Shown: positions 2,672 through 36,270 of the stretch, in pieces
Layout: the number at the start of each line of letters is the position of its first letter
How positions within the stretch are numbered: the stretch's first letter is position 1
NCBI GenBank assembly: GCA_016288635.1
Contig: JAEEKZ010000046.1
Coordinates: 49,751-113,750, forward strand
Direction of reading: 5' to 3'
Source of the DNA: Bacillales bacterium
Lineage (GTDB): Bacteria > Bacillota_I > Bacilli_A > RF39 > UBA660
DNA: 64,000 nt
The notes under the pieces: generated by a model
Told to the model about the DNA's origin: nothing
What the model saw: the letters and a program-made list of their open reading frames with translations, nothing else
Databases searched by the model: none
Position numbers and translations under genes: made by a program

Positions 2672-2705
2672 AATAAAAAAAGTGCTATTTCTAGCACTTA
2701 TTTTA
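2672..2705 (-). terminator. Rho-independent terminator downstream of the fused giant ORF; appears bidirectional
   Basis: Hairpin AAGTGCTA-tttc-TAGCACTT with an A-run on one side and a T-run on the other. It sits immediately after the stop codon at 2703. Confidence 0.5.
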
Positions 2706-12231: not shown

Positions 12232-12471
12232 TCAAAAAAGTGAACTTTTTTTTGACTTTTTTATTAATCTATTAAATTTTTTAAGAATTTCAGCCCTTTT
12301 ATCACTATATTCCTTACTATTTTCTACGTATTTGTCATCTTTATACTCTAATATCATTCCATCATAAGGAATACCATCAATTAGTTCTTTATTAATGGTT
12401 TTTGTTTCTTTACTTTCTAGATCAATTATTACAACTTTGTCATCAATTATTTCATCTACTGCATATTTCAT
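12232..12471 (-). CDS. Small conserved hypothetical protein, translationally coupled to the upstream MBL-fold gene
   Basis: 79-aa ORF overlapping the preceding gene by 4 nt. This class of small protein is often found next to ComEC-like MBL genes. Confidence 0.4.
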   Translation of the reverse strand: MKYAVDEIIDDKVVIIDLESKETKTINKELIDGIPYDGMILEYKDDKYVENSKEYSDKRAEILKKFNRLIKKSKKSSLF

Positions 12472-17951: not shown

Positions 17952-18356
17952 ATGAAAGCATTTCGCCTTTATTTACCCGCCTTTATAAGTATGGTTTTAA
18001 TTCTTTTACTTGGAATCATTTGTGTTAAAGAAACTTTTTCTAAAAAAGAAACACAAACGAATACCATAGATATTAAAATAATTAAAACAAAAGAATCAGC
18101 TTTACATACATATTATAGTAATGTTAATCTCTATAATATTGATGACGTTATGATTAACGATATAAACTTAAAAGACTACTTAAAAGCCAATTCAATAAAA
18201 AATCTTATAAAATCATTTGAAAAATATAGCGAAGATGAGTACAAGACAATACATAAATATAAAGATAATATAGATATAGTATTAGTAAAATGTAAAAATG
18301 AATCTTATATTTTAGGGGATAAAGAATTATTAAATGTAAATGATATATGTTTATAA
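17952..18356 (+). CDS. Hypothetical secreted or membrane-anchored protein
   Basis: N-terminal signal/TM segment. Preceded by an extended -10 (TGGTACAAT) and a good RBS. Confidence 0.4.
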   Translation: MKAFRLYLPAFISMVLILLLGIICVKETFSKKETQTNTIDIKIIKTKESALHTYYSNVNLYNIDDVMINDINLKDYLKANSIKNLIKSFEKYSEDEYKTIHKYKDNIDIVLVKCKNESYILGDKELLNVNDICL

Positions 18357-18375
18357 AGAATAAAAGGAGATAAAA

Positions 18376-19734: not shown

Positions 19735-19737
19735 AAG

Positions 19738-19768
19738 CACTTAAAAATAAGTGCTTTTTTATTGATAT
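19738..19768 (+). terminator. Rho-independent terminator after the glmM-like gene
   Basis: Hairpin AAGCACTT-aaaaat-AAGTGCTT followed by TTTTTT. Confidence 0.5.
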
Positions 19769-19772
19769 TTTT

Positions 19773-19801
19773 TTGCAAATATAAGCATTTTAGAGTATAA
19801 T
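19773..19801 (+). promoter_or_regulatory. Sigma-A type promoter for ftsK
   Basis: TTGCAA, 17-nt spacer, TATAAT, ending 17 nt upstream of the ftsK ATG. Confidence 0.5.
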
Positions 19802-19817
19802 TATATTGGTGAATAAT

Positions 19818-22136
19818 ATGGCAAGAAGGAAAAAAACAAGACAAAATAAAAGTTCTCATAACTTTAGTATAGATTTAACAAGCCTAATCTTAATACTTAT
19901 TGGTGTTATCGGCTTTGGATTTGGCCCAGCGGGAATGTATTTTAAAAAAGGTGCAATGTTCCTTTTAGGCGAAGGATGGATGTTTTTATTAATTGGCCTA
20001 ATTTATGTTGGGCTATATATGCTTATTAAAAGAAAGGCTCCTAACCTTTTCACAATAAAACTAATAGGTATTTATTTATTAGTATTTGTTATTTTATCAG
20101 TTATGCATTTAGCTTTCTTAAAACATGAAACAACTGTTACTGGAATTATTCAAATGACAAAAGATAATTGCTTAGCTAGAGTAAATACTTTTGATGCAAG
20201 TACCGCACTTACATCGACCGGAGATCGTACTATATTAATTGGTGGAGGTATGGTGGGTGCTCTAGGTGTTTCATTACTATCAAACCTTTTCTCTACGTTA
20301 GGTGCTAAAATAGTTCTTGCCGTATTAGGTATATTCTCATTAGTACTAATATTCAATATGAATATTGCTCAATTATTTGAAAAAATATTTGGTGGTTTAA
20401 AAGATATTCCTATTGATGATGGAAAACCTGAAGACTCTAAGAAGAAACACTTAATAATTAATGAAGACGGTATTGTTTATGATAATAATAATGAAACAAA
20501 GGATGCTAAATTAGAACAAACGCTTACATTAGCTTCTGAAGTTGAAGAAATAAAAGAAAAAGAAGAAGTTAAGCCAACAATCATTCACAGTATTGATGAA
20601 ATAAAGAATTTACGTAACAATGAACCCGCTCCTGCTAAAGAGGAAAAGGAACCTGTTATCATTGATAATTACTCTGGAGACTATAAACTTCCACCATTAT
20701 CATTACTTGACCCAGTTAAGGTAAAACATGATAACAATATGGTTGAAGAAGTTAAACAAAACAAAGAAGTATTACAACGAGTATTAAAAGACTTTGGTAT
20801 CGATGCTACAGTTGTAGAAATACATATTGGTCCAGCTGTAACAGAATATGAGATTACTGTTCCTGCTGGAACAAAAGTTAGTAGAATACTTGGTATAAAT
20901 AAAGAAATTGCCCTTGCGCTAGGAGCGAAAGATGTTAGAATTCAAGCCCCTATTCCGGGTAAGAAAGCTATTGGTATTGAATTACCAAACTCTACTATTG
21001 CTGCTGTACAAATTAAAGAAATATTTGATGCTAGCAAGAACTTAAAAACAGCTGGTAAGATTCAAGTATGTTTAGGTAAGAATATCGTAGGAGAAGCAAT
21101 AAATGCTGATATTTCTAAAATGCCTCACCTACTTGTTGCTGGTTCTACTGGATCTGGTAAATCAGTATGTATTAATTCAATGATTTGTTCAATTTTAATG
21201 CGTTACAAACCAAGTGAAGTTAAATTGGTTTTAGTAGACCCAAAGAAAGTTGAACTATCAAATTATAATTTAGTACCTCATCTACTTTGTCCGGTTGTAA
21301 CTAATCCAAAGAAAGCTTCAATAACACTACAAAAGATAGTTGAAGAAATGGAAAGAAGATTCCAACTATTTGCAGACAAAGAATTCAAAAATATCGCAGG
21401 ATATAATGAATGGGTTGAAAAATATAACAAAGAAAACCCAGATAATGAAATAGCTAAAATGCCATTCATTGTAGTAATTATCGACGAATTAGCAGACCTT
21501 ATGATGGTTGCTTCTAAAGAAGTTGAAGATTCAATTACAAGAATAACACAATTAGCTCGTGCTGCTGGTATTCATTTAATTGTAGCAACACAAAGACCAT
21601 CTACAGATGTCATTACTGGTTTAGTTAAAAATAACATTCCATCAAGAATTTCTTTCGCTGTATCAAGTCAAATTGACTCAAGAACAATTCTTGACCAAGC
21701 CGGTGCTGAAAAACTACTAGGACGAGGAGATATGTTATATTTCCCTATGGGAGAAAGTGCTCCTGTCAGAGTTCAAGGATGTTATATATCAGATGATGAA
21801 ATAGAAAGATTAATTGAATATTGTAAAAATCAATCTACTGCACAGTATGATAAAACATTCGAACAAATTCAAGAAATGTCAGAAAGTTCCCTTAGTGGCG
21901 AGGGTTTTGCAGGAGATGATAATTCGGATGACGCAATGTATGATGAAGTATTAGAATTTGCAATCCAAACTGGAAAAATAAGTACATCATTAATTCAAAG
22001 AAGATTTAGATTTGGATACACTAGAGCAGCTAGAATGATGGATTTATTAGAGCAACGTGGTATAGTTGGACCTCAAAATGGATCTAAACCAAGAGACGTT
22101 TTAATTAAAATGGAAGAAAATAACGAAGAAGTATAG
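19818..22136 (+). CDS. ftsK: DNA translocase FtsK/SpoIIIE
   Basis: N-terminal TM helices, linker, and a motor domain with Walker A (GSTGSGKSVCIN) and Walker B (IVVIIDELADLMMV). The C-terminus has a winged-helix gamma domain. Confidence 0.9.
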   Translation: MARRKKTRQNKSSHNFSIDLTSLILILIGVIGFGFGPAGMYFKKGAMFLLGEGWMFLLIGLIYVGLYMLIKRKAPNLFTIKLIGIYLLVFVILSVMHLAFLKHETTVTGIIQMTKDNCLARVNTFDASTALTSTGDRTILIGGGMVGALGVSLLSNLFSTLGAKIVLAVLGIFSLVLIFNMNIAQLFEKIFGGLKDIPIDDGKPEDSKKKHLIINEDGIVYDNNNETKDAKLEQTLTLASEVEEIKEKEEVKPTIIHSIDEIKNLRNNEPAPAKEEKEPVIIDNYSGDYKLPPLSLLDPVKVKHDNNMVEEVKQNKEVLQRVLKDFGIDATVVEIHIGPAVTEYEITVPAGTKVSRILGINKEIALALGAKDVRIQAPIPGKKAIGIELPNSTIAAVQIKEIFDASKNLKTAGKIQVCLGKNIVGEAINADISKMPHLLVAGSTGSGKSVCINSMICSILMRYKPSEVKLVLVDPKKVELSNYNLVPHLLCPVVTNPKKASITLQKIVEEMERRFQLFADKEFKNIAGYNEWVEKYNKENPDNEIAKMPFIVVIIDELADLMMVASKEVEDSITRITQLARAAGIHLIVATQRPSTDVITGLVKNNIPSRISFAVSSQIDSRTILDQAGAEKLLGRGDMLYFPMGESAPVRVQGCYISDDEIERLIEYCKNQSTAQYDKTFEQIQEMSESSLSGEGFAGDDNSDDAMYDEVLEFAIQTGKISTSLIQRRFRFGYTRAARMMDLLEQRGIVGPQNGSKPRDVLIKMEENNEEV

Positions 22137-22193
22137 AATCAATAAATTATTTTTGATATAATATGACATAGTATATGTTAAGGAGAATAAAAT

Positions 22194-22727
22194 ATGGCTA
22201 AAGAAAAAAACAAGTCAACAATTATAACAAATACAATTAAGGCTATTTTAGTGCTTATATTAATCGTTGGACTAGGTCTATACTATAAAGAATGGAAAAG
22301 AGTTAAAAACGAAGAAAAATACTTAAATAGTTATTTAATTGAAACAAAGACTGTTAACTTACAATTAAATTCATTAAAGGAATATTCTCAAATAAAAGAA
22401 GATATGCCTAGCGAATATTTCATTCTAATTAGTTATACTAAAGATAAAAATGTCAATAAGTTAGAAACAAAATTAAAAACAATAATAGATGGTTATTCAT
22501 TACAAAATATATTCTATTATTTAAATGCAACTGACTTATTAACAGAAGACTATTATAAAGAATTAAATAAAGTATTTGGAACAGAAGATATTAAGAAAGC
22601 TCCTGCACTAATATATGTTAAAGATTACAAATTAGAAAAAGTAATTAGCAGCAATAATGATAAATTATTTAATGTTAATGACTTTGAAAAATTATTAAAA
22701 GATAATGAGTATGAAAAAGCTGAATAA
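22194..22727 (+). CDS. Hypothetical membrane-anchored protein
   Basis: 177 aa with a single N-terminal TM helix. No assignable motifs. Confidence 0.4.
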   Translation: MAKEKNKSTIITNTIKAILVLILIVGLGLYYKEWKRVKNEEKYLNSYLIETKTVNLQLNSLKEYSQIKEDMPSEYFILISYTKDKNVNKLETKLKTIIDGYSLQNIFYYLNATDLLTEDYYKELNKVFGTEDIKKAPALIYVKDYKLEKVISSNNDKLFNVNDFEKLLKDNEYEKAE

Positions 22728-22763
22728 AGCTTTTTTTACTTGGCACAAGAAAGAGATGATAAA

Positions 22764-23282
22764 ATGATAAATATAGTGTTATTTGAACCAGAAATACCCC
22801 AAAATACGGGAAACATAATGAGGACCTGTGTAGCAACAAACTCCGTTCTTCATTTAATTAAACCATTAGGATTCAGTCTAGACGAAAAATATATTAAAAG
22901 ATCAGGCGTTAATTACATAGATAATTGTGTTTATCACGTATATGAAAACATTGAAGATTTCTACGAAAAAAATCCTGAAGGAGAATTTTATTATCTAACT
23001 AGATACGGACATAAACCACATACAGTATTTGATTATAGTGACCCAAATAAGAATTATTATTTTATCTTTGGTAAAGAAAGTACTGGTATTCCTAAAAAGT
23101 ATCTTAAACCCCATATAGAACATTGTATGCGCATGCCAATGACCGATAAGGTTAGAGCGTTAAATCTATCTAATACAGTTGCTATAATGACTTATGAGGC
23201 TCTTAGACAACAAAACTATCCCAATTTATTATTTGATGAACCCCATAAAACTAAAACAGAAATTGAAGATTGTGAAGAATAA
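22764..23282 (+). CDS. trmL: tRNA (cytidine/uridine-2'-O)-methyltransferase TrmL (SpoU/TrmH family)
   Basis: N-terminus MINIVLFEPEIPQNTGNIMRTC. I place the start at ATG 22764. The ORF-track start at 22740 is a TTG extension. Confidence 0.8.
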   Translation: MINIVLFEPEIPQNTGNIMRTCVATNSVLHLIKPLGFSLDEKYIKRSGVNYIDNCVYHVYENIEDFYEKNPEGEFYYLTRYGHKPHTVFDYSDPNKNYYFIFGKESTGIPKKYLKPHIEHCMRMPMTDKVRALNLSNTVAIMTYEALRQQNYPNLLFDEPHKTKTEIEDCEE

Positions 23283-23316
23283 AAAAACATCAGTTTACTC
23301 TGATGTTTTTATTTCA
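23281..23316. terminator. Bidirectional terminator between convergent trmL and the 23295-24395 gene
   Basis: Hairpin AAACATCAG-tttactc-CTGATGTTT flanked by an A-run and a T-run. It overlaps the stop of the minus-strand gene. Confidence 0.4.
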
Positions 23317-24395
23317 TTTTGAGTACATTCATATCCCTTTTTATTAATATATGTATCAATAAATTCTTTTTTAGTTGTCTCTTTTATTACTTCTTCAACT
23401 GTATATCTAATAACATAAGGCTTACTTTTCTTTCCACTATAATATACATCATCTGAAGATATTACTTTTTCTGCAACGATAGCTCTAACTTTGCCTTCTT
23501 CGTCATCGTAATACTTTGGATAATTGGTTTGATAAGCATACTCATACTTTATTTTTCCAGCAATTTTTTCAACATTATTAAATTGGACAGTAATTTTTTC
23601 GCTTGTAGCTGAATCATTCAAGGAATCAGTTGATTGTTTTGTGCATACATATGATTCAATTATTTTAGGAATCTTTTTGAATCTTATTGTATCACTTTCA
23701 ACACACTGATCTGTTGAACCCTTTTCACATGTTTTAAGTTTAATGTTTGTTTCTAACTCTACATTAGCGTTAATATCTACTCCCTCATCAACAATAAATT
23801 CACTTTCACATTCCTTATATTTACATTTAACAATAAATTTCTCTGGAATAACACTTTCGCCAACATATAATGTAACTTCTTCTTTATAAATAACTTTTCC
23901 ACCCTCGACACGAGCACGGCCATTATATTTATTTTGTCCACATGTAATTACAAAATCATATGTTCCTTCTTTTGATGTATCAATTTTTGATATATCTACA
24001 ACACAGTTTTCCGATTTAATACCACTAAAAGTAGCATAGAATGTTGGATTCTTAGAAGGACTTGTCTTTAATGAAATTACAACGTTCTTAGGATTAACTG
24101 TATATTCCACTTTTTCTTCTGCTCTTCTTAAAATTAAGAATAACCCAACCGCAATTGCTAATATTAATACTGATATTATAACTAAGAAGAAAGTCTTTTC
24201 TCCTTTTGACATTTCTTTTTTCTTTTCTTTTTTTGGTGGCATAAAGCCAATTTCTTCAGCACTACGTCTAAGTTTAAATTCAGCATATTTATTTGTTTCT
24301 TGAACTGGTTGTTGAGGAGTAGATAACTGCTCTATTTCTTCAGCATTTTCTACCTGACTACCATTATTCATATTGTCCTGATTTGGCATATACAC
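23295..24395 (-). CDS. Hypothetical bitopic membrane protein with a Pro/Gln-rich cytoplasmic N-terminus
   Basis: N-terminal 75 aa are low complexity (PQQPVQ), followed by one TM helix and an extracellular domain rich in beta residues. Confidence 0.4.
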   Translation of the reverse strand: MYMPNQDNMNNGSQVENAEEIEQLSTPQQPVQETNKYAEFKLRRSAEEIGFMPPKKEKKKEMSKGEKTFFLVIISVLILAIAVGLFLILRRAEEKVEYTVNPKNVVISLKTSPSKNPTFYATFSGIKSENCVVDISKIDTSKEGTYDFVITCGQNKYNGRARVEGGKVIYKEEVTLYVGESVIPEKFIVKCKYKECESEFIVDEGVDINANVELETNIKLKTCEKGSTDQCVESDTIRFKKIPKIIESYVCTKQSTDSLNDSATSEKITVQFNNVEKIAGKIKYEYAYQTNYPKYYDDEEGKVRAIVAEKVISSDDVYYSGKKSKPYVIRYTVEEVIKETTKKEFIDTYINKKGYECTQNEIKTSE

Positions 24396-25762: not shown

Positions 25763-26944
25763 CTATTTAACCATAACATCTAAATCAACATCGCCTTTTA
25801 TTCCTGGAATTCTTCCTGTTGATGAAAACTGCCACATCTTATATCCTTTATAGCCTGTATCAGTAACATAATGAGCTAGCCAAATATTTTCTATTTGATC
25901 ATCATCCCAATAATTAACCAGATTATTTCTACTACCATAAAGCATTCCTTTATATCCAGCATCTTCAACTGTTTTAATATATGTTTTAGCCATTTCATTT
26001 AATTCATGTAAACTCAAATGATATGTACTCCAGCCATCCCATATTTCCCAGTCAAATACTATTGGTAAATCTAATTTTTCTCCATCTAAAGCATTTAATA
26101 CCCATTCTGCTTCATGCTTTGCCTCATTTACACTTAATGCCTTGCTATATAAATAAACGCCAACTTTTAATCCTGCTGCTTTAGCATTTTTTATATTTTG
26201 TAAATAGTATGAATCCATGACCGGTTCATCACCTGATTTTAACTTTACTCCAATACGCATCATTACAAATGTTGCTCCGGCATCTCGTACCTTTTCAAAA
26301 TCTACATCAGCTTGCCACTTTGAAACATCTATACCCATTTCTGTATTATCATTTTTATACTTTGCATAAGCATCCGCAAATTGAACCGTAGGCATTCTTG
26401 AGGACGAAGTTGTTTTAGATATTTTTTCAACAACTTTAACTTCAAGCGGATGATCTACTTTATTACCTGATGAATCAGTTATATATAAATTAACATTATA
26501 CGTTCCTAGTTTAGTAGTATCATATTCTCCTTCAACTACACATATTGGCGTACTATCATAATAATCTGCAATACGAACTGAATTACATAAATCACCACTA
26601 TAATTTAGTTCCACTGTTTTTGATGATGATCCATGTACTAATGGCGGAGTTGTATCTACAACATTAACTGCAGTTCTCGTAACATACTTTTTATTTTTAT
26701 ATACATAATGAATAGATACATTTTGAATTCCAACATTATTTGTATCTATTACTTCATTCTTATAATCATCAACATTTGTTTCTTTAATCAAATCTTTAAT
26801 TTCTATATGAGAATATACCTCAGGATTAACCGCATTTAATTCCAAAACAACTTCTTGTGGTTGCACTTCTATTTCTTTTCCCTCTTCTTTACAAGCACAT
26901 AAGAATAACAAACACATAAAAATTAATAATAATTTCTTTTTCAT
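25763..26944 (-). CDS. Lipoprotein with a C-terminal GH25 muramidase (lysozyme) domain
   Basis: Lipobox LLFLCAC. N-terminal Ig-like region. GH25 motif GIDVSKWQADVDFEKVRDAGATFVMMRIG. Confidence 0.7.
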   Translation of the reverse strand: MKKKLLLIFMCLLFLCACKEEGKEIEVQPQEVVLELNAVNPEVYSHIEIKDLIKETNVDDYKNEVIDTNNVGIQNVSIHYVYKNKKYVTRTAVNVVDTTPPLVHGSSSKTVELNYSGDLCNSVRIADYYDSTPICVVEGEYDTTKLGTYNVNLYITDSSGNKVDHPLEVKVVEKISKTTSSSRMPTVQFADAYAKYKNDNTEMGIDVSKWQADVDFEKVRDAGATFVMMRIGVKLKSGDEPVMDSYYLQNIKNAKAAGLKVGVYLYSKALSVNEAKHEAEWVLNALDGEKLDLPIVFDWEIWDGWSTYHLSLHELNEMAKTYIKTVEDAGYKGMLYGSRNNLVNYWDDDQIENIWLAHYVTDTGYKGYKMWQFSSTGRIPGIKGDVDLDVMVK

Positions 26945-26994: not shown

Positions 26995-27027
26995 GAATAT
27001 AAAAAACATCTTATTTACTAAGATGTT
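26995..27027 (-). terminator. Rho-independent terminator at the end of the SipW/TasA-like operon
   Basis: Hairpin AACATCTTA-tttac-TAAGATGTT followed by a T-run on the minus strand. Confidence 0.5.
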
Positions 27028-27732
27028 TTATCTATTTTGAGTAACTATTAATTTAACATTAACAACTATACATTCTTGAGTAGGATGGGCTTGTTGGAAA
27101 CTATATGCTAGATTACCCCAATAAGTATCTGTAGCATCATCACCCGACTCAAAAGGCCATGTAATTTCCATGGAGTATGAACCCGTTTCCCCAACACCCA
27201 AATTAGTTCTATCAGTTAAAAATGTTATTGAAAACGGATAATTTGATTCTAAAAAGTCTTCTAATTCATCACTCGTCATATCATCTTCATTTGGAGTTTG
27301 TCCTCGGTCTAATCTTCCATCAACAGAAACATATTCTGTACCAAGTATATTTGCACTCATAATTTTATATTCCATAGAAGCTGCCATTTCTCCGTCATTT
27401 ATGATATTAATAGAGTCATAGGCATCAGCCATTCCCGGATATACTTCATCTATATCAAACTGTACATATTGAACATTTTGATTATCATCAGTTTTGAAAT
27501 TAATCTGCCAAGATCTAACATGTACATTGATATCGTTGGATACTTCACTGGCATAAATAAACCACGCTAAAGTATTAGCAGTTATCAATACAACTACCAA
27601 TAATAACTGCCATATTTTAACTTTTTTAAATAAGATTTTAAGAATAAACTTAAATTTATTTATTTTAGGCTTATTATTCCTTTTCTTCTCCTCCATTTGA
27701 ATCATCCTCATCGTCTTCTTCATCTTCTTCAT
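27028..27732 (-). CDS. TasA/camelysin-like secreted protein with a SipW-cognate type signal; last gene of the operon
   Basis: Basic N-region, hydrophobic core, then TLAWFIYAS, which fits [TS]-x-A-[YWF]-F. The ORF-track start overlaps the upstream SipW gene by 59 nt, so the true start is probably an internal Met. Confidence 0.5.
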   Translation of the reverse strand: MKKMKKTMRMIQMEEKKRNNKPKINKFKFILKILFKKVKIWQLLLVVVLITANTLAWFIYASEVSNDINVHVRSWQINFKTDDNQNVQYVQFDIDEVYPGMADAYDSINIINDGEMAASMEYKIMSANILGTEYVSVDGRLDRGQTPNEDDMTSDELEDFLESNYPFSITFLTDRTNLGVGETGSYSMEITWPFESGDDATDTYWGNLAYSFQQAHPTQECIVVNVKLIVTQNR

Positions 27733-28303
27733 CTATTTCACTAAACTTTTCAGCTACTATTTGAAGAGATAAAGATACACCAATTATTAACACTATAATA
27801 AAGTATGTAACTATATTATTTGTTAACTTACTTATAAAACTAAGTAAAACTGATTTATATATTACTTTTCCATATATTTGTGATTGAGTTATTTCCTCAT
27901 CTTCAATTGCATTAGCAACACCCTTTGTAATAAAGTGATATTGCTTATCTTCTTCATCAAATTTTTTATCAATTACACGGTGAGTTATTGTAAATCCTTC
28001 ATACTGAATTTTCTCAGTATCAAATGTAACATCATCACCAATTTTTATATCTTTACCTTCAGTCTTTTTAATAAATATAATATCGCCAACTTTATATACC
28101 GGTTCCATTGATCCAGTAGCAACATTATAAATCCTAATACCAAACACAGATATATTCTTACTGCTAGGTATTTTTTGAACTAAAATAATAACTAATAAAC
28201 AAAGTAATATAAAGAATGCAATTCCTTTTCCAATTCCTATAATTAATTTGATTATCTTATTATTATCTATTGCTTCCTTTAATTTAATTATTTTTTTAAT
28301 CAT
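27674..28303 (-). CDS. sipW: Signal peptidase I of the SipW (ER/archaeal) type
   Basis: N-terminal TM helix. Catalytic Ser motif ATGSMEP and His motif ITHRVI. It also has a C-terminal TM helix and an acidic tail. Confidence 0.8.
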   Translation of the reverse strand: MIKKIIKLKEAIDNNKIIKLIIGIGKGIAFFILLCLLVIILVQKIPSSKNISVFGIRIYNVATGSMEPVYKVGDIIFIKKTEGKDIKIGDDVTFDTEKIQYEGFTITHRVIDKKFDEEDKQYHFITKGVANAIEDEEITQSQIYGKVIYKSVLLSFISKLTNNIVTYFIIVLIIGVSLSLQIVAEKFSEIDEEDEEDDEDDSNGGEEKE

Positions 28304-29435
28304 TTTGCCCTCTTAATTTGAAATTAATAATTTTACTAATTGCACTTTGAATCTTACTATTTAACTTAGTTTGAACTTCCTCAATAGAAGCTTCTTTTTT
28401 ATTCTTAATAATAGCAATCTTATCACCAATCTTTTGAGTAATCTCTTCAACTGGCAATTCAGAATTTATTTCAACAATTTTATTAATCATACCATTAGTC
28501 AAGTTTTCAACTTGATCTCTAGTTAATTCTAATTGTTCTATCTTATTTGAAGTTAAACTATCCATAACTAAATAGTTAAGTAAGAATAATTCATCAAATT
28601 TACCCTTAGCTTCAATATCATCTTTATATTCTTTATTCGTTTTATTTTTTGTACTACCATCCTCAAGATTATTCTGCAAAAAATCCCATAACTTCATTGC
28701 ATATTGGAAGTTAGTATTTTTTAAAATTAAGTTTGTCTTCTTAATCGGTGGAATAACTCTAGATACGTGAGCTCTCATTAATGTTTTATAAACAGTTGTA
28801 TTAGTTAAGTCAGTAATTCTCATCTCTAACTTTTCTATTCTCTCTGGAATAGTTAAACCACTATTGTTCTTGCCTTTCCATTCTTTAGATACATTGGCAG
28901 ACGCATCCATAGTGACATTAATAGAAACATTTTCTGTTCCCATTTTAGCTTGTCCACAATACATACTTTGTCTATGATTCTTAGAAAATGATTTAGTAAC
29001 CAATTTTGACTTTTTAAAATCTATAAAAGTTCTCATATTTTGAATTAGAGTATATATTACTCTATTTTCATATGTATCATAACTTTCATCTTTATTAATA
29101 TTTAATATTTTAGATGGTTTAACATCTCCATTTGCTTCGATTTCTTGAATAAAACTTGTGTGTTTTGCCAAATGTTTAATACTTTCAACAGTAATTCTTC
29201 TTGCTTGTTCAACTTTAACTATTTCTTCTTCGTTTATGATAAATCTATTTGGATTTCTTAAAATATTATCAAGATATCTTACTGTATCTTCCATTAATTC
29301 TAACCACTCAAAAGAAACATCAAGACTCTCAATGTTTTCTTTTATATTATAAGAAGATTTTATTGAACTTTCGAAGGATACAACTGATTTTTTATCAGCA
29401 TGTTCATATGTATCAAATACTCTTAAACTACTCAT
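28296..29435 (-). CDS. Hypothetical partner of the McrB-family GTPase (McrC-like position); no nuclease motif seen
   Basis: 379 aa and translationally coupled: it starts 9 nt after the McrB-like gene and ends inside sipW. Contains a DTYENRVIYTLIQNM segment. I could not find a clear PD-(D/E)xK motif. Confidence 0.35.
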   Translation of the reverse strand: MSSLRVFDTYEHADKKSVVSFESSIKSSYNIKENIESLDVSFEWLELMEDTVRYLDNILRNPNRFIINEEEIVKVEQARRITVESIKHLAKHTSFIQEIEANGDVKPSKILNINKDESYDTYENRVIYTLIQNMRTFIDFKKSKLVTKSFSKNHRQSMYCGQAKMGTENVSINVTMDASANVSKEWKGKNNSGLTIPERIEKLEMRITDLTNTTVYKTLMRAHVSRVIPPIKKTNLILKNTNFQYAMKLWDFLQNNLEDGSTKNKTNKEYKDDIEAKGKFDELFLLNYLVMDSLTSNKIEQLELTRDQVENLTNGMINKIVEINSELPVEEITQKIGDKIAIIKNKKEASIEEVQTKLNSKIQSAISKIINFKLRGQND

Positions 29436-29443
29436 ATTAACAC

Positions 29444-30973
29444 CTATGACATCTTCTTAAGCCTTAATACATATTCAATACATTCAGCCATTTTATCTTT
29501 ACCAAATGTTTTATCTAAATATTCTACGAAACCATCAATTTCATCACGAATATATGAAATATTTAACTGTTCAAATTTTCTTAAAATCTTACGAGCAATG
29601 AAATAATCTACTCCAGCAATTTCATCTCCACCACAGGCAACAAATACTGGAACAAACTTTTTCATATGTGCCATAATACGGTTACCAAAAGCTATACGGA
29701 AATGTTTAATAACATAGTCATCCATTTCCTCAATCTTTTTAAGTGTTTCATCTGAAATAGGATTATCATCTATTGCATCAGTAAATAACTTATCTAAGTA
29801 ACTGAAATTAATATCTTGAGCTTGAACATTCTCTGCATCAAACACTTGACCTTTTGTATTAATATCTATTGGCATAGCACGGTCGTAAACCTTATCTGTA
29901 ACCATAAATGTTGAGTCATCGTTATTGATTGTTCCTATATACCAACAATTTGGTGGAATCTTTAATTTACCACTTATTAAATGTTTAGGGTCACTTGCCC
30001 ATGCTGAAGAAACAACTTCAACAATCCATTCATCTTTATTAGGCATTTCTAGAATTGATAACATCTCGGCAAAATAATATTCGACACGAGAGATGTTCAT
30101 TTCATCTAGGATGATTGTATAAACATCATCTGTATATCCTGCTTCATATAATGTTTTTAAAATATCAGTCTCATTAAACTTCTTAGTAAATTCGTTGAAG
30201 TATCCAAATAACTCTGATCTATCACGCCATGATGGCTGAACAGATGCAACACATGAGTCATGCTTTAAGAATTTTCCCCAAGCATATGCTAGGGAAGTTT
30301 TACCTGTTCCAGAAATACCTTGTAAAATTACAATCTTAGTACTTGCTAAACCAGATATAAATATACGAATCATATCAGATGTATAATATAAACCTAACTG
30401 ACTAGCTGCAAAATTTCTAAATAATTCAATTAACTCTGGTAAAGTAAATGAATTGTTATAATTTTGAATCTTATAATCTTTATATTGTATATCAACATCA
30501 TGTAATTTAGAGAATCTAATTGCAGTATTTTGATCAATTTCTTCCCCTTCACCATTTTCATCAGGGTTAACAATATTATCCTCACCTGGTTGTAAACCTA
30601 GTTGGGAAACTTTCATTGCAAGAATTGATTCTCTTTCTTTCATTAAAGATGAAACTTTAGAATTTAATGTAGAAATTTCCTCTAACATTGATTCTTGTTC
30701 CACAATTGTCTTCCTAAATCTAATATATTTTCTAATTAAATAAACGATTAATAAAACTATACCAGCAATAAAAGCTAATAGAATTAATAAACCTATGCCA
30801 AATAATACCCATTCACCTGGCGAAAGATCTGCTTTATAACGGGCTATTATCTTAATATATTGAGGGACATTTAAAGTTTGAACTACACCTTTAAAAATGC
30901 CTATAACGCCTAATTTTAAACCACCAAAAAACTGTGATAATACTTCATAAAACAATTTTAAAAATGTCTTCAA
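29444..30973 (-). CDS. Membrane-anchored McrB-family AAA+ GTPase
   Basis: Walker A (ILQGISGTGKTSL), McrB-type Walker B (TIILDEMNISRVEYYFAEMLSILE), the McrB signature IGTINNDDS...DRAMPI, and an N-terminal TM helix plus coiled coil where a DNA-binding domain would normally sit. Confidence 0.6.
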   Translation of the reverse strand: MKTFLKLFYEVLSQFFGGLKLGVIGIFKGVVQTLNVPQYIKIIARYKADLSPGEWVLFGIGLLILLAFIAGIVLLIVYLIRKYIRFRKTIVEQESMLEEISTLNSKVSSLMKERESILAMKVSQLGLQPGEDNIVNPDENGEGEEIDQNTAIRFSKLHDVDIQYKDYKIQNYNNSFTLPELIELFRNFAASQLGLYYTSDMIRIFISGLASTKIVILQGISGTGKTSLAYAWGKFLKHDSCVASVQPSWRDRSELFGYFNEFTKKFNETDILKTLYEAGYTDDVYTIILDEMNISRVEYYFAEMLSILEMPNKDEWIVEVVSSAWASDPKHLISGKLKIPPNCWYIGTINNDDSTFMVTDKVYDRAMPIDINTKGQVFDAENVQAQDINFSYLDKLFTDAIDDNPISDETLKKIEEMDDYVIKHFRIAFGNRIMAHMKKFVPVFVACGGDEIAGVDYFIARKILRKFEQLNISYIRDEIDGFVEYLDKTFGKDKMAECIEYVLRLKKMS

Positions 30974-30995
30974 TCTCTCTCACCCTTTTCTCTTA

Positions 30996-31979
30996 TTAAA
31001 GTGTTACAACTATATCCTTTAATATTTTATCTTCACTATCCATTATAATATCATAATATTCATATTTTTCATATACGAAAACGTTCTTAAATAATATTAA
31101 ACAATCAAAATCATTATCAAATGTCTCATCTAATAATAATGATATCTTATATCCCAAATTAATTAATTTATTTATTTTTTCTTTATTATTAACATAATCT
31201 TTATATGAATATCTAATTGATATTTTATTCTTAACTATAGAACTATCTAATATTCTTAGATATCTTTTTATTTTCTTTTCTTTACCTAAAAGTGATATAG
31301 GTAATTCAACAACATATGTTTTATCAAAATTTAGTGATATAACATCAGTTAAAATCTTCTCAGTTAGAAGATAATACAACAAATAATATTTGTTTTCTTC
31401 AACAACTCCTGAATTAAACGCTTTTTCAATAGCATAATCACTATATAATTTTGAAACATTACAATGTTGAGCCATATGAACATATTGTAAATTTCTTTTT
31501 AATCTTCTAAATTTTAATTCAAAATCTTCACATTCAAATATCTTGAAAAAATCTTTTTTCTTCTTGTTAAAATCTTTTATTAGATTTCGATATTCTTCTT
31601 TTGCTTCATCAGTATATTCTAGTTTAATATTAGTATCTTTTAATAATGCATTATTTAACTTAACAATATTATCGATTTCTACACAATCATCTAAATATAA
31701 TACGTAGCCCATCAAAGCAAAAGCGTTTTTTACGGTTTCTTTTTTATCTGAATACTGCTTAATTAATTCATCAGCAACATCTCTAAGTTCCTTATTTATT
31801 CTTTCAATAAAACTCTTTGCATTTGGATAATTAGTAACATTATAATAACGAACATTTACATATTTATCGATAAATGATTTTACAATTTTCTCATCATATG
31901 TATCGCCCAATAATGTCTGATAAAACTTAATCAAAAAATCTATAACAAATTGTATATATTCCTCGATAATATTTTCCAT
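30996..31979 (-). CDS. Hypothetical cytoplasmic protein
   Basis: 327-aa ORF inside the operon with no recognisable motifs. Confidence 0.4.
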   Translation of the reverse strand: MENIIEEYIQFVIDFLIKFYQTLLGDTYDEKIVKSFIDKYVNVRYYNVTNYPNAKSFIERINKELRDVADELIKQYSDKKETVKNAFALMGYVLYLDDCVEIDNIVKLNNALLKDTNIKLEYTDEAKEEYRNLIKDFNKKKKDFFKIFECEDFELKFRRLKRNLQYVHMAQHCNVSKLYSDYAIEKAFNSGVVEENKYYLLYYLLTEKILTDVISLNFDKTYVVELPISLLGKEKKIKRYLRILDSSIVKNKISIRYSYKDYVNNKEKINKLINLGYKISLLLDETFDNDFDCLILFKNVFVYEKYEYYDIIMDSEDKILKDIVVTL

Positions 31980-31998
31980 TTTCTCCCTCTATTCTTTT

Positions 31999-32922
31999 TT
32001 ATATTTGTGCTGTAAATGTTATTACAGAATTTTGATTTACAAAAGGATATGTGTAATTCTGTGAAACATTCTTTTTATAAAACCTCACTTCTGTACTACT
32101 TTGAGAATCAACCTTAAATGTTAATGAGCTAATATAATTTACGCCATTAATCATTGTATGCTGAAATGTTGCACTCGCCATAATATCACTGGTAGTATCT
32201 AGAATAACTACATTTGGATCAAACGATAATGTAATCATCGCAGATGCAAAATTTTCTCTTTCTTCAGGAGTTAAATTTCTATATACATCAGTTAAAATTA
32301 CATCTCCAACATTATATGAACCAGTTGGTCTAATTGCTTTATATTCATCTGCTGCATTAGTTATAATAAAATTTAAATATGTGTTTCCAACAGAATCCGT
32401 TATTTCATACGAAATACCTTTTTTACCCACTTTAATTATGAAATGAGCTGATAATGTTTCTTCATATGGCGAAATACTTGATGCGGTCACATTTACTTCA
32501 ACTTCTTCATCAGTATCAAATACTCGAGTAGGAATAACTGTTAAAACAATATTATCAGTTTTCTCATCAACATATATTGTTCCTGATGTTGCACTCAAAT
32601 TACAAATAACATCTTGACTGCAACTTGCATTTAATTGGTATGCAATATCAGTATCACTTGTAAGAATATTATTTTTATGATTATTTAGGTCAAATTGAAT
32701 TGTAAAATTACTAACCCCTGACCAGTTATTAACACGATATAATTCGTTATTTTTTGTTAACTTGTCACTGTTAAAAAAGAAATTATTAGATTCAATAATA
32801 TAGTTTTTAACAAAGTTATATACATATCTTGAAAATGTTATAGTAAGCGGTAATATGATAGCAATACCTAATAAGATAATAACTAATTTTAATTTCTTAT
32901 TTCTTATTTTTATCTTTTTCAT
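31999..32922 (-). CDS. Secreted protein with a SipW-cognate-like signal; TasA-like fibre candidate
   Basis: Basic N-terminus, hydrophobic core, then TITFSRYVY. Mature region is beta-rich. Confidence 0.4.
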   Translation of the reverse strand: MKKIKIRNKKLKLVIILLGIAIILPLTITFSRYVYNFVKNYIIESNNFFFNSDKLTKNNELYRVNNWSGVSNFTIQFDLNNHKNNILTSDTDIAYQLNASCSQDVICNLSATSGTIYVDEKTDNIVLTVIPTRVFDTDEEVEVNVTASSISPYEETLSAHFIIKVGKKGISYEITDSVGNTYLNFIITNAADEYKAIRPTGSYNVGDVILTDVYRNLTPEERENFASAMITLSFDPNVVILDTTSDIMASATFQHTMINGVNYISSLTFKVDSQSSTEVRFYKKNVSQNYTYPFVNQNSVITFTAQI

Positions 32923-32947
32923 ATTAACTCCTTTCTATAATATTTTA

Positions 32948-33577
32948 TTAACCCTCATATTCTCCTTTAACAAAAGTAATATCAGTATCTATTTCATTAC
33001 TAGCATTTTTATTTATATTTACTGCTGAATCACTAACTATTATTTCTATTTCCCAGGTATGGACCGTTTCTTTTCCTTTATCTGCACTAATTTCGTAATT
33101 ATTTGCAAATTTAAATACACCTGTTTTATTAGTAATATCAAACACATTATTTTCTACATTAAAATTCAAACCGTTAATTGAATTTACATAGGTTCCATCA
33201 GGCTTCTTAATTTTCAAATTTATTGCTTCCGAATTATCCTCAGAGCGAACGATGTTATTATTTTTAATATTTATATAACCATTATAAGTAGTAGAACCAT
33301 TATTTTTTGAATCGGCAGTATAAACCACTACAGGTCTTGTAATAGCCCTATGAGTATTATCTTCTGTCTCTATTAATTGATTAATAGTTTCTCCTTTTAA
33401 GAAAAGTAAAGTTTCTCCTTTGGCGGAACTTGCTGACATACTTCCCACAGAAGCTTCATTAACATTTGAAGAAAGATATGAATATGTTATTGTAATAGTA
33501 ATCATAAACAATAAAACGAAAGACAAAGTACATATTGCTATAGTTTCTTTTCTAATTTTCTTTCTTACATTATCCAT
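32948..33577 (-). CDS. Secreted protein with a SipW-cognate-like signal; TasA-like fibre candidate
   Basis: Signal ...ITITYSYLSS, followed by a 170-aa beta-rich mature region. Confidence 0.4.
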   Translation of the reverse strand: MDNVRKKIRKETIAICTLSFVLLFMITITITYSYLSSNVNEASVGSMSASSAKGETLLFLKGETINQLIETEDNTHRAITRPVVVYTADSKNNGSTTYNGYINIKNNNIVRSEDNSEAINLKIKKPDGTYVNSINGLNFNVENNVFDITNKTGVFKFANNYEISADKGKETVHTWEIEIIVSDSAVNINKNASNEIDTDITFVKGEYEG

Positions 33578-33594
33578 ATTCTTCTCCTTTCTTT

Positions 33595-34200
33595 TTAATT
33601 TTCAATATCCTGTTCAGCATGAATAGTAAATGTTACTAAATCAATTAATCCTTGATATTTATTTGCATCTGTTTTATATTGCGACGGGAAATTAACTATT
33701 ATCGAATATTGATCTATTTGATTAGAACTAATTGTAAATGCATACTCATCATTATCAACAAACTCGTTATAATACATTCCATCATCATCTGATATAACGC
33801 TATCTGCATCAATTATATTTGTTGCTGCAGAAGAATAAGTTTCATTCCTAATCACCTGATACTGAAGTGGTAAATTAGTTGTTGTTTTTAAACTTATACT
33901 ATAATGCAAATTAACATCACATCTTTTATTATCATCATAATTATACACGTTTATTGTAAATATATATGGATCATCACTTGGTTCTAAGCCATCAAGTGTA
34001 ATTGTTCTTGACTGTGTACCTTGATCAACTATGAAATATGCAACATTAGCTTCTGTGTAAACATTGGCATTTGATTCATATCTTGAATAAGCAACCCCAA
34101 TCACATTTGCGGCTAATACTAAAAAAAGAAATAATAAAATTATTTTGAAATTAAACTTAAACTTTTTTTTATCAAATAATTCATTAAGATTCTTTTTCAA
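33595..34200 (-). CDS. Secreted protein with a SipW-cognate-like signal; TasA-like fibre candidate
   Basis: Signal ...ANVIGVAYSRYES. Size is about 200 aa. Confidence 0.45.
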   Translation of the reverse strand: MKKNLNELFDKKKFKFNFKIILLFLFLVLAANVIGVAYSRYESNANVYTEANVAYFIVDQGTQSRTITLDGLEPSDDPYIFTINVYNYDDNKRCDVNLHYSISLKTTTNLPLQYQVIRNETYSSAATNIIDADSVISDDDGMYYNEFVDNDEYAFTISSNQIDQYSIIVNFPSQYKTDANKYQGLIDLVTFTIHAEQDIEN

Positions 34201-34203
34201 GTT

Positions 34204-34938
34204 TTAATCCTCCTTGTCTATATTTTCCTTTATTTCCTTACTAATTTCACTTAAATCCAATCTAATTGTATATTCGTCTTTCTCTTCTTCCTTAGCAGGA
34301 ATTTCACCATCTATTTTTTCTTCTTTTTTCTTTAACTTAGGAAGTACCATTGTTTTATCAAAATCATCATATAATGTCATTGGCTCTTCTATTTCACAAT
34401 TTTCTTTCTCTATAAGTTTATTAGACTTAGTTTTCTTTTCTTCATTCTTATCTTTGTAAGATAAAGCAAAATCAAAAGCAAGAAGAGTAATAAAAATAGT
34501 AATATATATTTCTTTAGTGGTTAATATTTTTTGCCATATTCCACCATGTTCAATAATCTTGATAACTCTACCAATAACAACTCCCCTTTTAATTGGAGCA
34601 TCAGTTGTATTATTAGCATCACCCTTAGCAATTATGCCTGATTTATTAATCTCTACAATTCTATGAGTTATATAACTATTATTCTTTTCATAAGTTATTA
34701 TATCTCCAACTTTATAACTCTTTTGTTTTTTAACAAGAATAATATCATTCTCATGAATAGTGGGTTCCATACTACCAGTTGCAATATTAAAAATAGAGTA
34801 GCCAAAAAAATCTAGATAATTCTTTTTATTAGCTAGTGTCATTACTTTTAATATTATTATAAGTAGCAATATTACTATTGCTACACTTAATAATACATTT
34901 ACCAAAATATTAAGTACTTTTAAAACTGTTTTTGGCAC
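34204..34938 (-). CDS. sipW: Signal peptidase I of the SipW (ER/archaeal) type
   Basis: Catalytic Ser motif ATGSMEPT and His motif ITHRIV. It has N- and C-terminal TM helices and an acidic/Lys-rich C-terminal tail. Confidence 0.8.
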   Translation of the reverse strand: MPKTVLKVLNILVNVLLSVAIVILLLIIILKVMTLANKKNYLDFFGYSIFNIATGSMEPTIHENDIILVKKQKSYKVGDIITYEKNNSYITHRIVEINKSGIIAKGDANNTTDAPIKRGVVIGRVIKIIEHGGIWQKILTTKEIYITIFITLLAFDFALSYKDKNEEKKTKSNKLIEKENCEIEEPMTLYDDFDKTMVLPKLKKKEEKIDGEIPAKEEEKDEYTIRLDLSEISKEIKENIDKED

Positions 34939-34961
34939 GTATACAACCTCTTTTTCCTTTT

Positions 34962-35540
34962 TTATTCTCCTAAGTATTGAATTAATTTTATATTAATTGG
35001 AATAACAATTTTATTATTCAACACTATTCCTAGTTGAGTATCTGAATCATTTAATGTCTCGTCGTTAACCCAACTAACATGTACTCTAAGTGATATTGTT
35101 TCACCTTCATCAATATCATCTAATGTAATTACTCCTATATAAGTGTTTTCATCTACTTGTGTAGCGCTATCACCACTTAGCATATCGACACTATAAGTTA
35201 TATTATCTTCATATGCGTCATCTAAGTTAAATGTGATTTCATATTGAATTGCTACATCAGTACCACTAGGATCAAGAATTAAATCAAAATATCCTGATCT
35301 CCCCGGTGCTATATAACCATTATTTATTGTTGTAGAGTCTTCATAAACAAACTCATCAACATTTATATCTGTCTCTCCTGTTTCAGAGATTAAGATATCA
35401 TTTAAGTTTATTGTCCAACCACCAACAGGATTTTCTTCCAATGCAGTAGCATTATTCTCAAATAAACCATATGAATTATATATAACAAGCAGCAAGACAA
35501 CAAATAGAAGAATACTTACTGTCCATAGCTTTGCTCTCAT
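34962..35540 (-). CDS. Secreted protein with a SipW-cognate-like signal; TasA-like fibre candidate
   Basis: Signal ...LLVIYNSYGLFENNAT. Mature region is beta-rich. Confidence 0.4.
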   Translation of the reverse strand: MRAKLWTVSILLFVVLLLVIYNSYGLFENNATALEENPVGGWTINLNDILISETGETDINVDEFVYEDSTTINNGYIAPGRSGYFDLILDPSGTDVAIQYEITFNLDDAYEDNITYSVDMLSGDSATQVDENTYIGVITLDDIDEGETISLRVHVSWVNDETLNDSDTQLGIVLNNKIVIPINIKLIQYLGE

Positions 35541-36196
35541 TATTCCTCGCTTGATACAAAAAGTGGTTTTTCTTTTTCTTCTTCAAGAATAGGTTTATCT
35601 TCAGGATCTTTTTTCTTACCTTCTGATTGCATATTCTTCATTTCTTTTTGATATTCTCTTTTAACTACAACTACAATTCTATATATTTCATATACCACCA
35701 AATAAATAGTCGGTAAAATTATAAGAAATAAGAATCCCCATCTTGAACTTATAATGTTATATATGAATCCAATTCCACCAAGTTTCATTGCACCATTTGC
35801 TGCACCAATTATGTTACCATAAGAAACAACAACATCTCCAAAATAATAATTATCTTGAGTATTCTTTAACACATCAATTGAAGTTATTTCTGCTAAATTA
35901 ACATAACTTCCAATATCCCTATTATTGTAGTAGAAGAACACTAAATCTCCTTTTTTATAAGTATCTTCAGGTTGTTTAGAAACAAAAACCATATCATATT
36001 TGTTAAATCCATATTTTGATATTGATTTATTATCTACTACAAACATAGAAGTATCTCCAAATTCACTTACTCTATGCTCATTTAAAAATAATAAACAAAT
36101 CGTTGATGCAATTGCTATTACTATCCATATTGTAAGTAATATTCCTTTTAACGTATCTTTTACCACTTTCATATTATTTATCACCATTATTATCAT
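35540..36196 (-). CDS. SipW-like protein, probably a catalytically degenerate signal-peptidase paralog
   Basis: Same architecture and length as the two SipW genes, with N- and C-terminal TM helices and GD boxes. The Ser box reads GDTSMFVV instead of SGSMEP, and no HR motif is present. Confidence 0.5.
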   Translation of the reverse strand: MIIMVINNMKVVKDTLKGILLTIWIVIAIASTICLLFLNEHRVSEFGDTSMFVVDNKSISKYGFNKYDMVFVSKQPEDTYKKGDLVFFYYNNRDIGSYVNLAEITSIDVLKNTQDNYYFGDVVVSYGNIIGAANGAMKLGGIGFIYNIISSRWGFLFLIILPTIYLVVYEIYRIVVVVKREYQKEMKNMQSEGKKKDPEDKPILEEEKEKPLFVSSEE

Positions 36197-36239
36197 ACCA
36201 TTATTTACTTATTTATTAAAGACTTTATTTACTTATTTA

Positions 36240-36270
36240 AACAAAAAAGCAAGGTAAATCTTGCTTTAAT
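36240..36270 (-). terminator. Rho-independent terminator after thiI
   Basis: Hairpin AAGCAAG-gtaaat-CTTGCTT followed by a T-run on the minus strand. Confidence 0.5.

Follow-up and report, generated by a model that had tools for sequence, protein, structure and literature searches.

In Bacillus subtilis the fibre protein TasA is cut by a dedicated signal peptidase, SipW, and the aromatic residue at the P2' position, which is reported to make TasA a poor substrate for LepB of Escherichia coli, is viewed as a hallmark of SipW-dependent cleavage (PMC10269814). Fibre growth in the TasA and BsaA systems proceeds by donor-strand exchange, and so provides a precedent for the polymerisation proposed below (PMC9674648, PMC11580942). 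In a survey of McrBC systems, Bell et al. (eLife 2024, PMC11090510) described a large clade of McrB proteins that carry a fused FtsB-like transmembrane (TM)/coiled-coil region and are associated with proteins of the signal peptidase family, which were taken to be pilus assembly factors. The survey names CoCoPALM in a single paragraph that defers the analysis; the text of its supplement holds no CoCoPALM details, and a literature search found no follow-up publication. Here we analyse a 64,000-nucleotide stretch of DNA (the window) from a Bacillales bacterium (GTDB lineage Bacteria; Bacillota_I; Bacilli_A; RF39; UBA660; NCBI GenBank assembly GCA_016288635.1, contig JAEEKZ010000046.1, positions 49,751 to 113,750 of the forward strand), in which an operon at positions 27028-36196 combines signal peptidases, secreted proteins, and a GTPase related to McrB. 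This operon is best described as a CoCoPALM-type system, a type that has been named and is uncharacterised, and not an enlarged sipW-tasA operon.

Organization and conservation of the operon

The span 27028-36196 is one real operon. It holds 11 open reading frames (ORFs), all on the minus strand and numbered here from g1, the first to be transcribed, to g11, with successive gaps of -1, 23, 3, 17, 25, 19, 22, 8, -8, and -59 nt. An earlier reading of the sequence by itself (the original prediction) had proposed an eleven-gene operon, and the 11 minus-strand ORFs, placed exactly on that span at distances of -59 to +25 nt, bear it out. The inventory of three peptidase-like proteins (g1, g3, and g10) and five secreted proteins (g2, g4, g5, g6, and g11) given in that prediction also stands, but it left out the central genes g7, g8, and g9, and thereby overlooked what is the conserved core of the operon.

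The conservation of the locus was followed in a sample of 80 retrieved loci from different species; counts based on ORF assignment refer to the 61 loci with sufficient upstream sequence or to the 70 with sufficient downstream sequence. The order of genes around g8 is that of the window in 80/80 loci, namely g1-(g2-g3-g4)-g6-g7-g8-g9-g10-g11. The gene g9 follows g8 in 68/70 loci and a peptidase gene follows g9 in 67/70; g6, also part of the invariant core, lies upstream of g8 in 60/61. Searches with tblastn found g7 in 63 and g11 in 76 of the 80 loci, and g7 was recovered by ORF assignment in 52/61. Two forms of the locus can be told apart: a short form, g1-g6-g7-g8-g9-g10-g11 accompanied by a convergent gene, g2c (19 loci), and a long form in which g1 is followed by an insertion of g2-g3-g4 (42 loci). 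The central genes are therefore the core of the system, and g2-g3-g4, which amount to a second peptidase and two subunits, are an accessory module. Across the 80 species the identity of g8 is 63-77% (median 69%), compared with 23-64% (medians 31-44%) for the other operon proteins. The flanking genes (murD, thiI, GH25, and plsC) were considered as a benchmark for these values and discarded, as none is syntenic in the 80 loci.

Homologues of g8 number more than 8000, and the top 120 are full length and 72-80% identical. In a scan of one genome per species, at least 582 species were found to carry g8. All carriers are uncultured metagenome-assembled genomes (MAGs) of gut, rumen, or faecal origin, deposited under the titles Bacilli, Tenericutes, Mollicutes, Erysipelotrichaceae, or Clostridium sp. 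CAG; among them are two chromosomes, of 1.26 and 1.55 Mb, that have been closed. Among 72,556 plasmids and 50,697 phages no full-length membrane-anchored g8 was found; matches there involve the nucleoside triphosphatase (NTPase) domain alone, at no more than 37% identity. One example comes from a Deinococcus plasmid, which encodes a DUF2357 protein of 705 aa and, as its partner, an AAA protein that shares 37% identity with g8. An origin of the locus from a mobile element was rejected on the grounds of these domain-only matches.

The GTPase core

The gene g8 (29444-30973) encodes a membrane-anchored, McrB-like AAA+ GTPase. A hydrophobic N-terminus is followed by a TM segment at residues 62-80, the basic string RKYIRFRK, a heptad-like stretch at 92-119, and the NTPase domain at about 195-490. 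In a profile search against the Protein Data Bank (PDB), McrB of E. coli (6hz4) was the sole match, with the Walker A, Walker B, and N..D elements aligned, and the strings GISGTGKTS, LDEMN, and INNDD are invariant in 80/80 loci. The NNDD string can be read as NxD or as NxxD, so that placement in the NxD-type McrB clade is putative. The region of the TM segment and the heptad-like stretch gives weaker signals: residues 64-116 give a sub-threshold match to the FtsL model TIGR02209 (E 0.0099), sub-threshold Pfam matches to FtsL and FtsL_2 occur in 7 and 5, respectively, of 21 g8 homologues, and the heptad periodicity of residues 92-119 comes from a crude script that could not establish coiled coils. 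Among defence models, PADLOC PDC-M26A matches g8 at 6e-36 over the NTPase domain only, and PADLOC gave no match for any other operon protein.

The adjoining gene g9 (28296-29435) encodes a 379-aa protein that matches PF09823 (DUF2357) at 1.5e-10, followed by a helical C-terminal extension, and that is without a nuclease domain. DUF2357 is the N-terminal domain of McrC and activates McrB. This domain was found in 37/37 orthologues of g9, and no nuclease family was found in any of the 37. A nuclease hidden in the C-terminal half of g9 was considered and rejected, with none in 37 orthologues and a PDB search that returned only a designed helical protein.

The third core gene, g7 (30996-31979), adjoins the GTPase gene on its upstream side and encodes a cytoplasmic protein of 327 aa that has no TM segment and no assignable fold. 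It gave no Pfam, NCBIfam, or PADLOC match, and a PDB profile search returned only weak helical matches. The idea of a degenerate EAL domain, prompted by the C-terminal sequence of g7, was dropped, as those PDB matches were weak and helical and the Pfam EAL model touched only 1/36 orthologues (E 0.035).

Active and inactive signal peptidases

Both g3 (34204-34938) and g10 (27674-28303) encode signal peptidases I of the ER/archaeal type. The model for this class, TIGR02228, which contains SipW, has a curated cut-off of 51.85 bits, and g3 and g10 score 79.6 and 88.8 bits. Each carries a TGSMEP box with the catalytic Ser and a THR box with the catalytic His, and alignment shows that these boxes are kept in their orthologues; with the boxes intact, both proteins are predicted to be active signal peptidases. 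They differ in their C-terminal tails, which is long and charged in g3 and acidic in g10, the latter being the copy that belongs to the core. Neither reaches the 190-bit cut-off of the SipW equivalog model NF046067 (60.2 and 58.9 bits), and by these scores g3 and g10 belong to the SipW class but are not orthologues of Bacillus SipW.

The first gene of the operon, g1 (35540-36196), encodes a peptidase-like membrane protein that is catalytically dead. It fails TIGR02228 (19.6 against 51.85 bits), and within its family the His is missing in 7/7 aligned sequences and the Ser is kept in 1/7. Homology to the peptidases is apparent from a search with the g10 profile (hmmsearch, 1.6e-13), and the TM segments of g1 (residues 19-37 and 153-171) parallel those of g10 (24-42 and 164-182). 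The gene was found by tblastn in 56/80 loci and assigned as an ORF in 36/61. With its TM helices retained and with its recurrence in 56/80 loci, g1 is a conserved pseudo-peptidase rather than a decaying gene. The expectation of two intact peptidases and one degenerate copy was thus correct, as g3 and g10 pass TIGR02228 with their Ser and His boxes and g1 does not, while the label 'SipW-type' applies at the level of the TIGR02228 class but not at that of the Bacillus SipW equivalog (about 60 against 190 bits).

Secreted proteins and their predicted cleavage motif

The five secreted proteins comprise g2 (34962-35540; 192 aa), g4 (33595-34200; 201 aa), g5 (32948-33577; 209 aa), g6 (31999-32922; 307 aa), and g11 (27028-27732; 234 aa). 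Each has a single N-terminal hydrophobic segment preceded by a tail rich in Lys and Arg, the segments lying at residues 3-21 in g2, 20-38 in g4, and 12-30 in g5, and in g11 the cytoplasmic tail is long and Lys-rich. At the outer end of the segment every family carries a motif of the form [TSA]-[YF]-[AGS]↓x-[FY], where the arrow marks the predicted cleavage site, which reads SYG↓LF in g2, AYS↓RY in g4, TFS↓RY in g6, and TLA↓WF in g11. The signal anchor of g5, TYS↓YL, departs from this motif in having Leu at +2. Over 275 orthologous sequences from the five families, position -1 is A, G, or S in 265/275 and position +2 is F or Y in 270/275, a degree of conservation that chance would not produce. 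The conserved site follows the hydrophobic segment and does not precede it. In g2 the conservation of the motif was seen across 48 orthologues; in g4 position -1 is A or S in 39/41 orthologues and position +2 is Y or F in 41/41; and in g11 the motif takes the stricter form N-[TS]-[FY]-A-W-F, with W at +1 in all 63 sequences and A at -1 and F at +2 in 61 each.

The sequence of TasA matches PDB entry 8aur exactly, and the mature chain there begins at A28, which places the cut at T-W-A↓A-F-N-D. The motif in the operon has the form of this cleavage site, in that position -1 is small and position +2 aromatic, and cleavage at the motif is predicted from this likeness. The dedicated model for SipW-cognate signals, TIGR04088, matched no operon protein, so that the SipW-cognate signals announced in the original prediction are present at the level of the motif (265/275 and 270/275) but not at that of the hidden Markov model (HMM).

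Elsewhere in the window, a 239-aa ORF at 13513-14232 (minus strand) has an N-terminus (LLVAVVGATFAYFSAVNGG, with GATFAYFS) that is close to a canonical signal of the camelysin/TasA type. Its sole NCBIfam match is TIGR04088, at 13.6 bits, short of the cut-off of 19 (E 0.059). The ORF is 13 kb away from the operon and is flanked by a ComEC-like metallo-beta-lactamase (MBL) gene and the gene for a lipoprotein of the peptidyl-prolyl isomerase type. This protein may be a sixth substrate of the operon peptidases.

Families and folds of the secreted proteins

Profile alignments with hhalign link most of the secreted proteins to one another, with probabilities of 100% for g2 and g2c, 98% for g2 and g4, 96% for g2 and g11, and 95% for g4 and the N-terminal domain of g6. 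On this basis g2, g4, g6, and g11 are distant paralogues, with g2c as a fifth family. The g5 protein stands apart: hhalign probabilities to the other families reach at most 21.5% and tblastn found no match in the 80 related loci, so by sequence comparison g5 is lineage-specific and not demonstrably a paralogue of the others. The convergent gene g2c encodes a g2-like protein with the motif T-Y-A-K-Y and was found in 61/70 loci, where it lies downstream of the g11 orthologue by about 100-700 nt (for example L003:13950-14525, on the opposite strand, in the set numbered L003-L082). No convergent gene of the g2c type occurs anywhere in the 64-kb window, where g5 is instead found inside the operon; the notion that g5 is a relocated g2c is unsupported (hhalign <=21.5%). 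The g2 family as a whole is large, with 2854 representatives at 50% identity in an exhaustive profile search (E <=0.001). In three of its members (P0365, P0372, and P0451) an N-terminal g2-type module is fused to adhesin-type domains, the partners being BspA-type leucine-rich repeats, ephrin-receptor-like Cys-rich repeats, and, in a 3424-aa giant, an FGE-sulfatase-like end, and in P0473 a ConA-like lectin domain precedes the g2-type module. By analogy, these fusions suggest modular tip adhesins.

The original prediction had described the secreted proteins as TasA/camelysin-like, and membership in that family found no support in any search made. Peptidase_M73 gave no match at E<=0.1 for g2, g4, g5, and g6 in Pfam and NCBIfam, or for g11 in NCBIfam; TIGR04088 was not found among 45 members of the g2 and g2c families in an NCBIfam scan to E = 10; the g2/g2c and g11 family profiles did not find TasA among the PDB sequences; and direct hhalign comparison with TasA gave probabilities of 4.6% and 0.9%.

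Structure prediction is in line with these results, and two models do not place the proteins with TasA, whose jelly-roll had been suggested for comparison. The AlphaFold model of g6 (pLDDT, the predicted local distance difference test, 91.7; 76-sequence alignment) shows one long N-terminal helix, residues 9-46, which runs through the predicted cleavage site and is followed by two beta-sandwich domains of the immunoglobulin (Ig)-like kind. Foldseek matched these to generic tandem Ig-like proteins (query-normalised TM-score <=0.34), and the domains belong to the PapD/MSP-like Ig class, which occurs also in pilus chaperones and matrix scaffolds. In the AlphaFold2 model of g2 (pLDDT 71), residues 24-53, just past the predicted cleavage site, score below 50 and precede a beta-sandwich; comparison with the PDB gave no significant match, the weak ones including the donor-strand fibres of Pyrodictium cannulae and FimG. 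The models thus point to pilin-like beta-sandwich proteins that would be compatible with fibre subunits. For the spore-surface fibre that had also been envisaged no support was found.

Operon boundaries and neighbouring genes

The operon is bounded by terminators, as had been proposed. On the upstream side a hairpin at 36246-36267 (minus strand; stem of 8-9 bp and a T-run), found in a terminator scan (5 such sites, where shuffled sequence would give 1.8), ends thiI, the upstream neighbour gene (TIGR00342, 362 bits). Downstream, directly after the stop codon of g11, a hairpin AACATCTTA-GTAAA-TAAGATGTT with a T-run was read from the sequence at about 27000-27027 (minus strand); it is rich in A+T and has fewer than three G-C pairs in its stem, and was therefore missed by the scanner. 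Just ahead of g1, at 36192-36219 (minus strand), a consensus scan found a promoter-like site with the boxes TTAATA and TATGAT, 16 nt apart, and an extended TG. It is a weak candidate, as shuffles of the region give equally many such sites, and it overlaps the start of g1 as defined by the longest ORF; the N-termini of orthologues suggest that the true start of g1 is the ATG at about 36172.

Adjoining the downstream terminator, a gene at 25763-26944 (minus strand) encodes a lipoprotein that carries a GH25 muramidase domain at its C-terminus (PF01183, 4.7e-31). Such a protein could make an opening in the wall through which a surface structure passes, but in other species the gene shows no synteny with the operon. 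In the region 18000-24000 the GC skew flips and the genes lie on the plus strand (including ftsK at 19806-22136), the rest of the window being coded on the minus strand. A 123-aa ORF at 10702-11073 (minus strand) has an N-terminus like that of type IV prepilins (MNKKGSTILEMLIVIV) and a weak ComGC/ComGD match, and together with the ComEC-like gene at 12468-13463 it suggests remnants of a competence pseudopilus. Three giant ORFs at 2703-7373, 53815-58245, and 59125-63075 (minus strand; 1556, 1476, and 1316 aa) encode secreted proteins with ordinary signal peptides and gave no Pfam match at E <=1e-5. After each of the latter two comes a gene for a secreted protein of about 260 aa that contains Cys, the two such proteins being paralogues (58238-59023 and 63072-63872), and the giants and these smaller proteins look like an uncharacterised family of surface proteins.

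A model for the operon and its alternatives

From gene content, motifs, catalytic residues, and conservation we infer cleavage, polymerisation, and a role for the GTPase, and with moderate confidence we regard the operon as an apparatus for making a protein fibre or pilus on the cell surface. The precursors would insert with the N-terminus in the cytoplasm, and g3 and g10 would cut after the small residue of the motif on the outside of the membrane, in the way that TasA is cut by SipW. The N-terminal segment so freed, which is disordered in the monomer model of g2, could complement a neighbouring subunit in donor-strand fashion to yield a heteropolymer, in which the paralogues might act as major, minor, tip, and anchor subunits, with g6 and the adhesin-fused relatives in specialised positions. 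The dead peptidase g1 might bind the signal region without cutting it and so hold, anchor, or chaperone an uncleaved subunit. On the cytoplasmic side g8 would form a hexamer, activated by the McrC-like g9 and probably assisted by g7, and the ring would couple GTP hydrolysis to assembly or gating through its coiled-coil/TM tether, a role that would be analogous to that of the type IV pilus ATPases, to which it is evolutionarily unrelated. A more specific version of this proposal is tentative: that the operon represents a new filament assembly machine of monoderm bacteria, in which a membrane-tethered McrB-family GTPase ring and a nuclease-less McrC plug were exapted from DNA restriction. It is as tentatively that we suggest that this ring drives or gates the processed Ig-like subunits, which would be cut by signal peptidase I and linked by donor strands, while the dead peptidase serves as anchor or chaperone.

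Several observations weigh against the proposed fibre machine. The filament and the cleavage are both predictions from gene sequences. TasA, the archaeal bundling pili, the archaeal threads, and BsaA fibres are described, in the accounts drawn on here, without a dedicated NTPase, which leaves the need for a GTPase unexplained. Nor is there an explanation of how a cytoplasmic ring would act on proteins that are released across the membrane. In PDB profile and Foldseek searches the subunits matched no solved fibre protein significantly, the model of g2 is only moderately confident, g7 lacks an assignable fold, and the coiled-coil and FtsB-like assignments of g8 are sub-threshold. Moreover, the strong conservation of g8 would also fit a housekeeping role in the envelope, unconnected with a pilus.

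Such a role is the first of the alternatives, and we consider it unlikely. The FtsB/FtsL-like part of g8 would tie the GTPase to the divisome or to the machinery of wall synthesis, and the processed Ig-like proteins would form a surface layer, sheath, or cell-cell connector for the growth of these small-genome Bacilli. An identity of 63-77% for g8 against 23-64% for the other operon proteins, and its presence in at least 582 species, are typical of core functions; weak FtsL-type matches span the TM/coiled-coil region; and g6 resembles matrix scaffolds (RbmA) as much as pilus proteins. The FtsL matches are, however, below threshold, and the genes that could be cited from the neighbourhood (the GH25 muramidase lipoprotein directly downstream, and those for EzrA, MurD, and FtsK in the window) make a weak argument because the flanking genes are not syntenic in other species. 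Fast-evolving paralogous subunits and adhesin fusions are, furthermore, typical of fibres that face a host or the environment and not of housekeeping layers. A membrane-bound anti-phage system derived from McrBC, in which the surface proteins would be sensors or decoys for phage adsorption and the GTPase/McrC-N pair would signal to an effector such as g7, is rather less probable again. It is true that g8 and g9 descend from a type IV restriction module, that their closest annotated relatives are AAA and DUF2357 pairs on plasmids, that g8 matches the defence candidate PDC-M26A of PADLOC (6e-36), and that Bell et al. place the clade beside the CoCoNuT defence systems (PMC11090510). Yet neither g9 (0/37 orthologues) nor g7 shows a nuclease or effector domain, PADLOC matches no further operon protein, and the full-length anchored g8 is absent from the 72,556 plasmids and 50,697 phages. 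Defence islands, which are sporadic, also differ from this locus, which is present almost universally, has its genes in a set order, and keeps g8 under strong purifying selection.

The possibility closest to the original prediction, that of an enlarged matrix operon of the sipW-tasA type into which an independently working McrBC-like cassette, g7-g9, was inserted, we regard as very improbable. In its favour are the class of the peptidases and a cleavage motif like that of TasA, and an operon with several substrates, sipW-bsaA-bsaB-bsaC, has been described in Clostridium perfringens (PMC11580942). Synteny largely refutes it: g7-g8-g9 occupy the same position in 80/80 loci and are the best-conserved part, and in the minimal locus, g1-g6-g7-g8-g9-g10-g11, the supposed insert is the core while g2-g3-g4 are variable. 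In addition, g8 has a TM anchor in place of a DNA reader, g9 is without nuclease, and the substrates fail the HMM, profile, and fold tests for TasA.

The presence of a restriction-derived GTPase in a pilus-like secretion operon was noticed earlier, in one paragraph, and is still unexplained; the anatomy described here, with its cleavage motif, active and dead peptidases, and division into core and accessory modules, makes the system directly testable. If assembly of the fibre is indeed coupled to the GTPase, a restriction motor (McrBC) would for the first time be seen reused for a cell-surface structure, and bacteria without an outer membrane would have an additional principle of pilus assembly. 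A novel machine of this kind would represent a new class of filament assembly that is widespread in the human and ruminant gut. With at least 582 species of small-genome gut and rumen Bacilli and subunits that diversify fast and bear adhesins, the system is a good candidate for attachment to hosts, food particles, or partner cells.

Comparison with known systems

The likeness to type IV pili and Com pseudopili is one of function only and lies in paralogous small subunits, a processing peptidase, and a cytoplasmic hexameric NTPase. Unlike these systems, the operon has no class III signal, g8 falls into a different AAA+ clade, and Pfam and NCBIfam searches found no prepilin peptidase and no PilB/PilC-like gene among the 11 ORFs. 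Chaperone-usher pili are likewise comparable in function only, by virtue of their Ig-like subunits and PapD-like folds, and differ from this locus in that here there is neither an usher nor an outer membrane.

With McrBC and CoCoNuT systems the operon shares the Walker A, Walker B, and N..D elements of g8 and the DUF2357 activator domain of g9. It differs from them in that a TM helix in g8 replaces the DNA- or RNA-binding N-terminal domain, that there is no PD-(D/E)xK or HEPN nuclease, and that the genes stand among those for secreted proteins and peptidases and are chromosomal and lineage-wide. The tapA-sipW-tasA operon of B. subtilis and the sipW-bsaA-bsaB-bsaC operon of C. perfringens, as described in the sources cited above, resemble it in placing a dedicated peptidase of the ER/archaeal type beside fibre subunits, and the former also in a cleavage site that is small at -1 and aromatic at +2. 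Unlike the present operon, sipW operons are described in those sources without an NTPase, an McrC-like protein, or a dead peptidase; unlike TasA, the subunits here fail the Peptidase_M73 and TIGR04088 models and the TasA fold search, and the peptidases are not SipW equivalogs.

This leaves the CoCoPALM type of Bell et al. The paragraph devoted to it reports neither the anatomy nor the subunits nor any experiment, and it does not include the dead peptidase, the five subunits with a TasA-type motif, g7, or the long and short forms of the locus. The FtsB-like and coiled-coil features of that clade are reproduced weakly in g8, where the TM segment at 62-80 is clear. What the operon has in common with this type is an McrB-like GTPase with its Walker A and B motifs, an adjacent McrC homologue with a DUF2357 domain, and peptidase genes, which accompany the pair in 67/70 loci and number three in the window.

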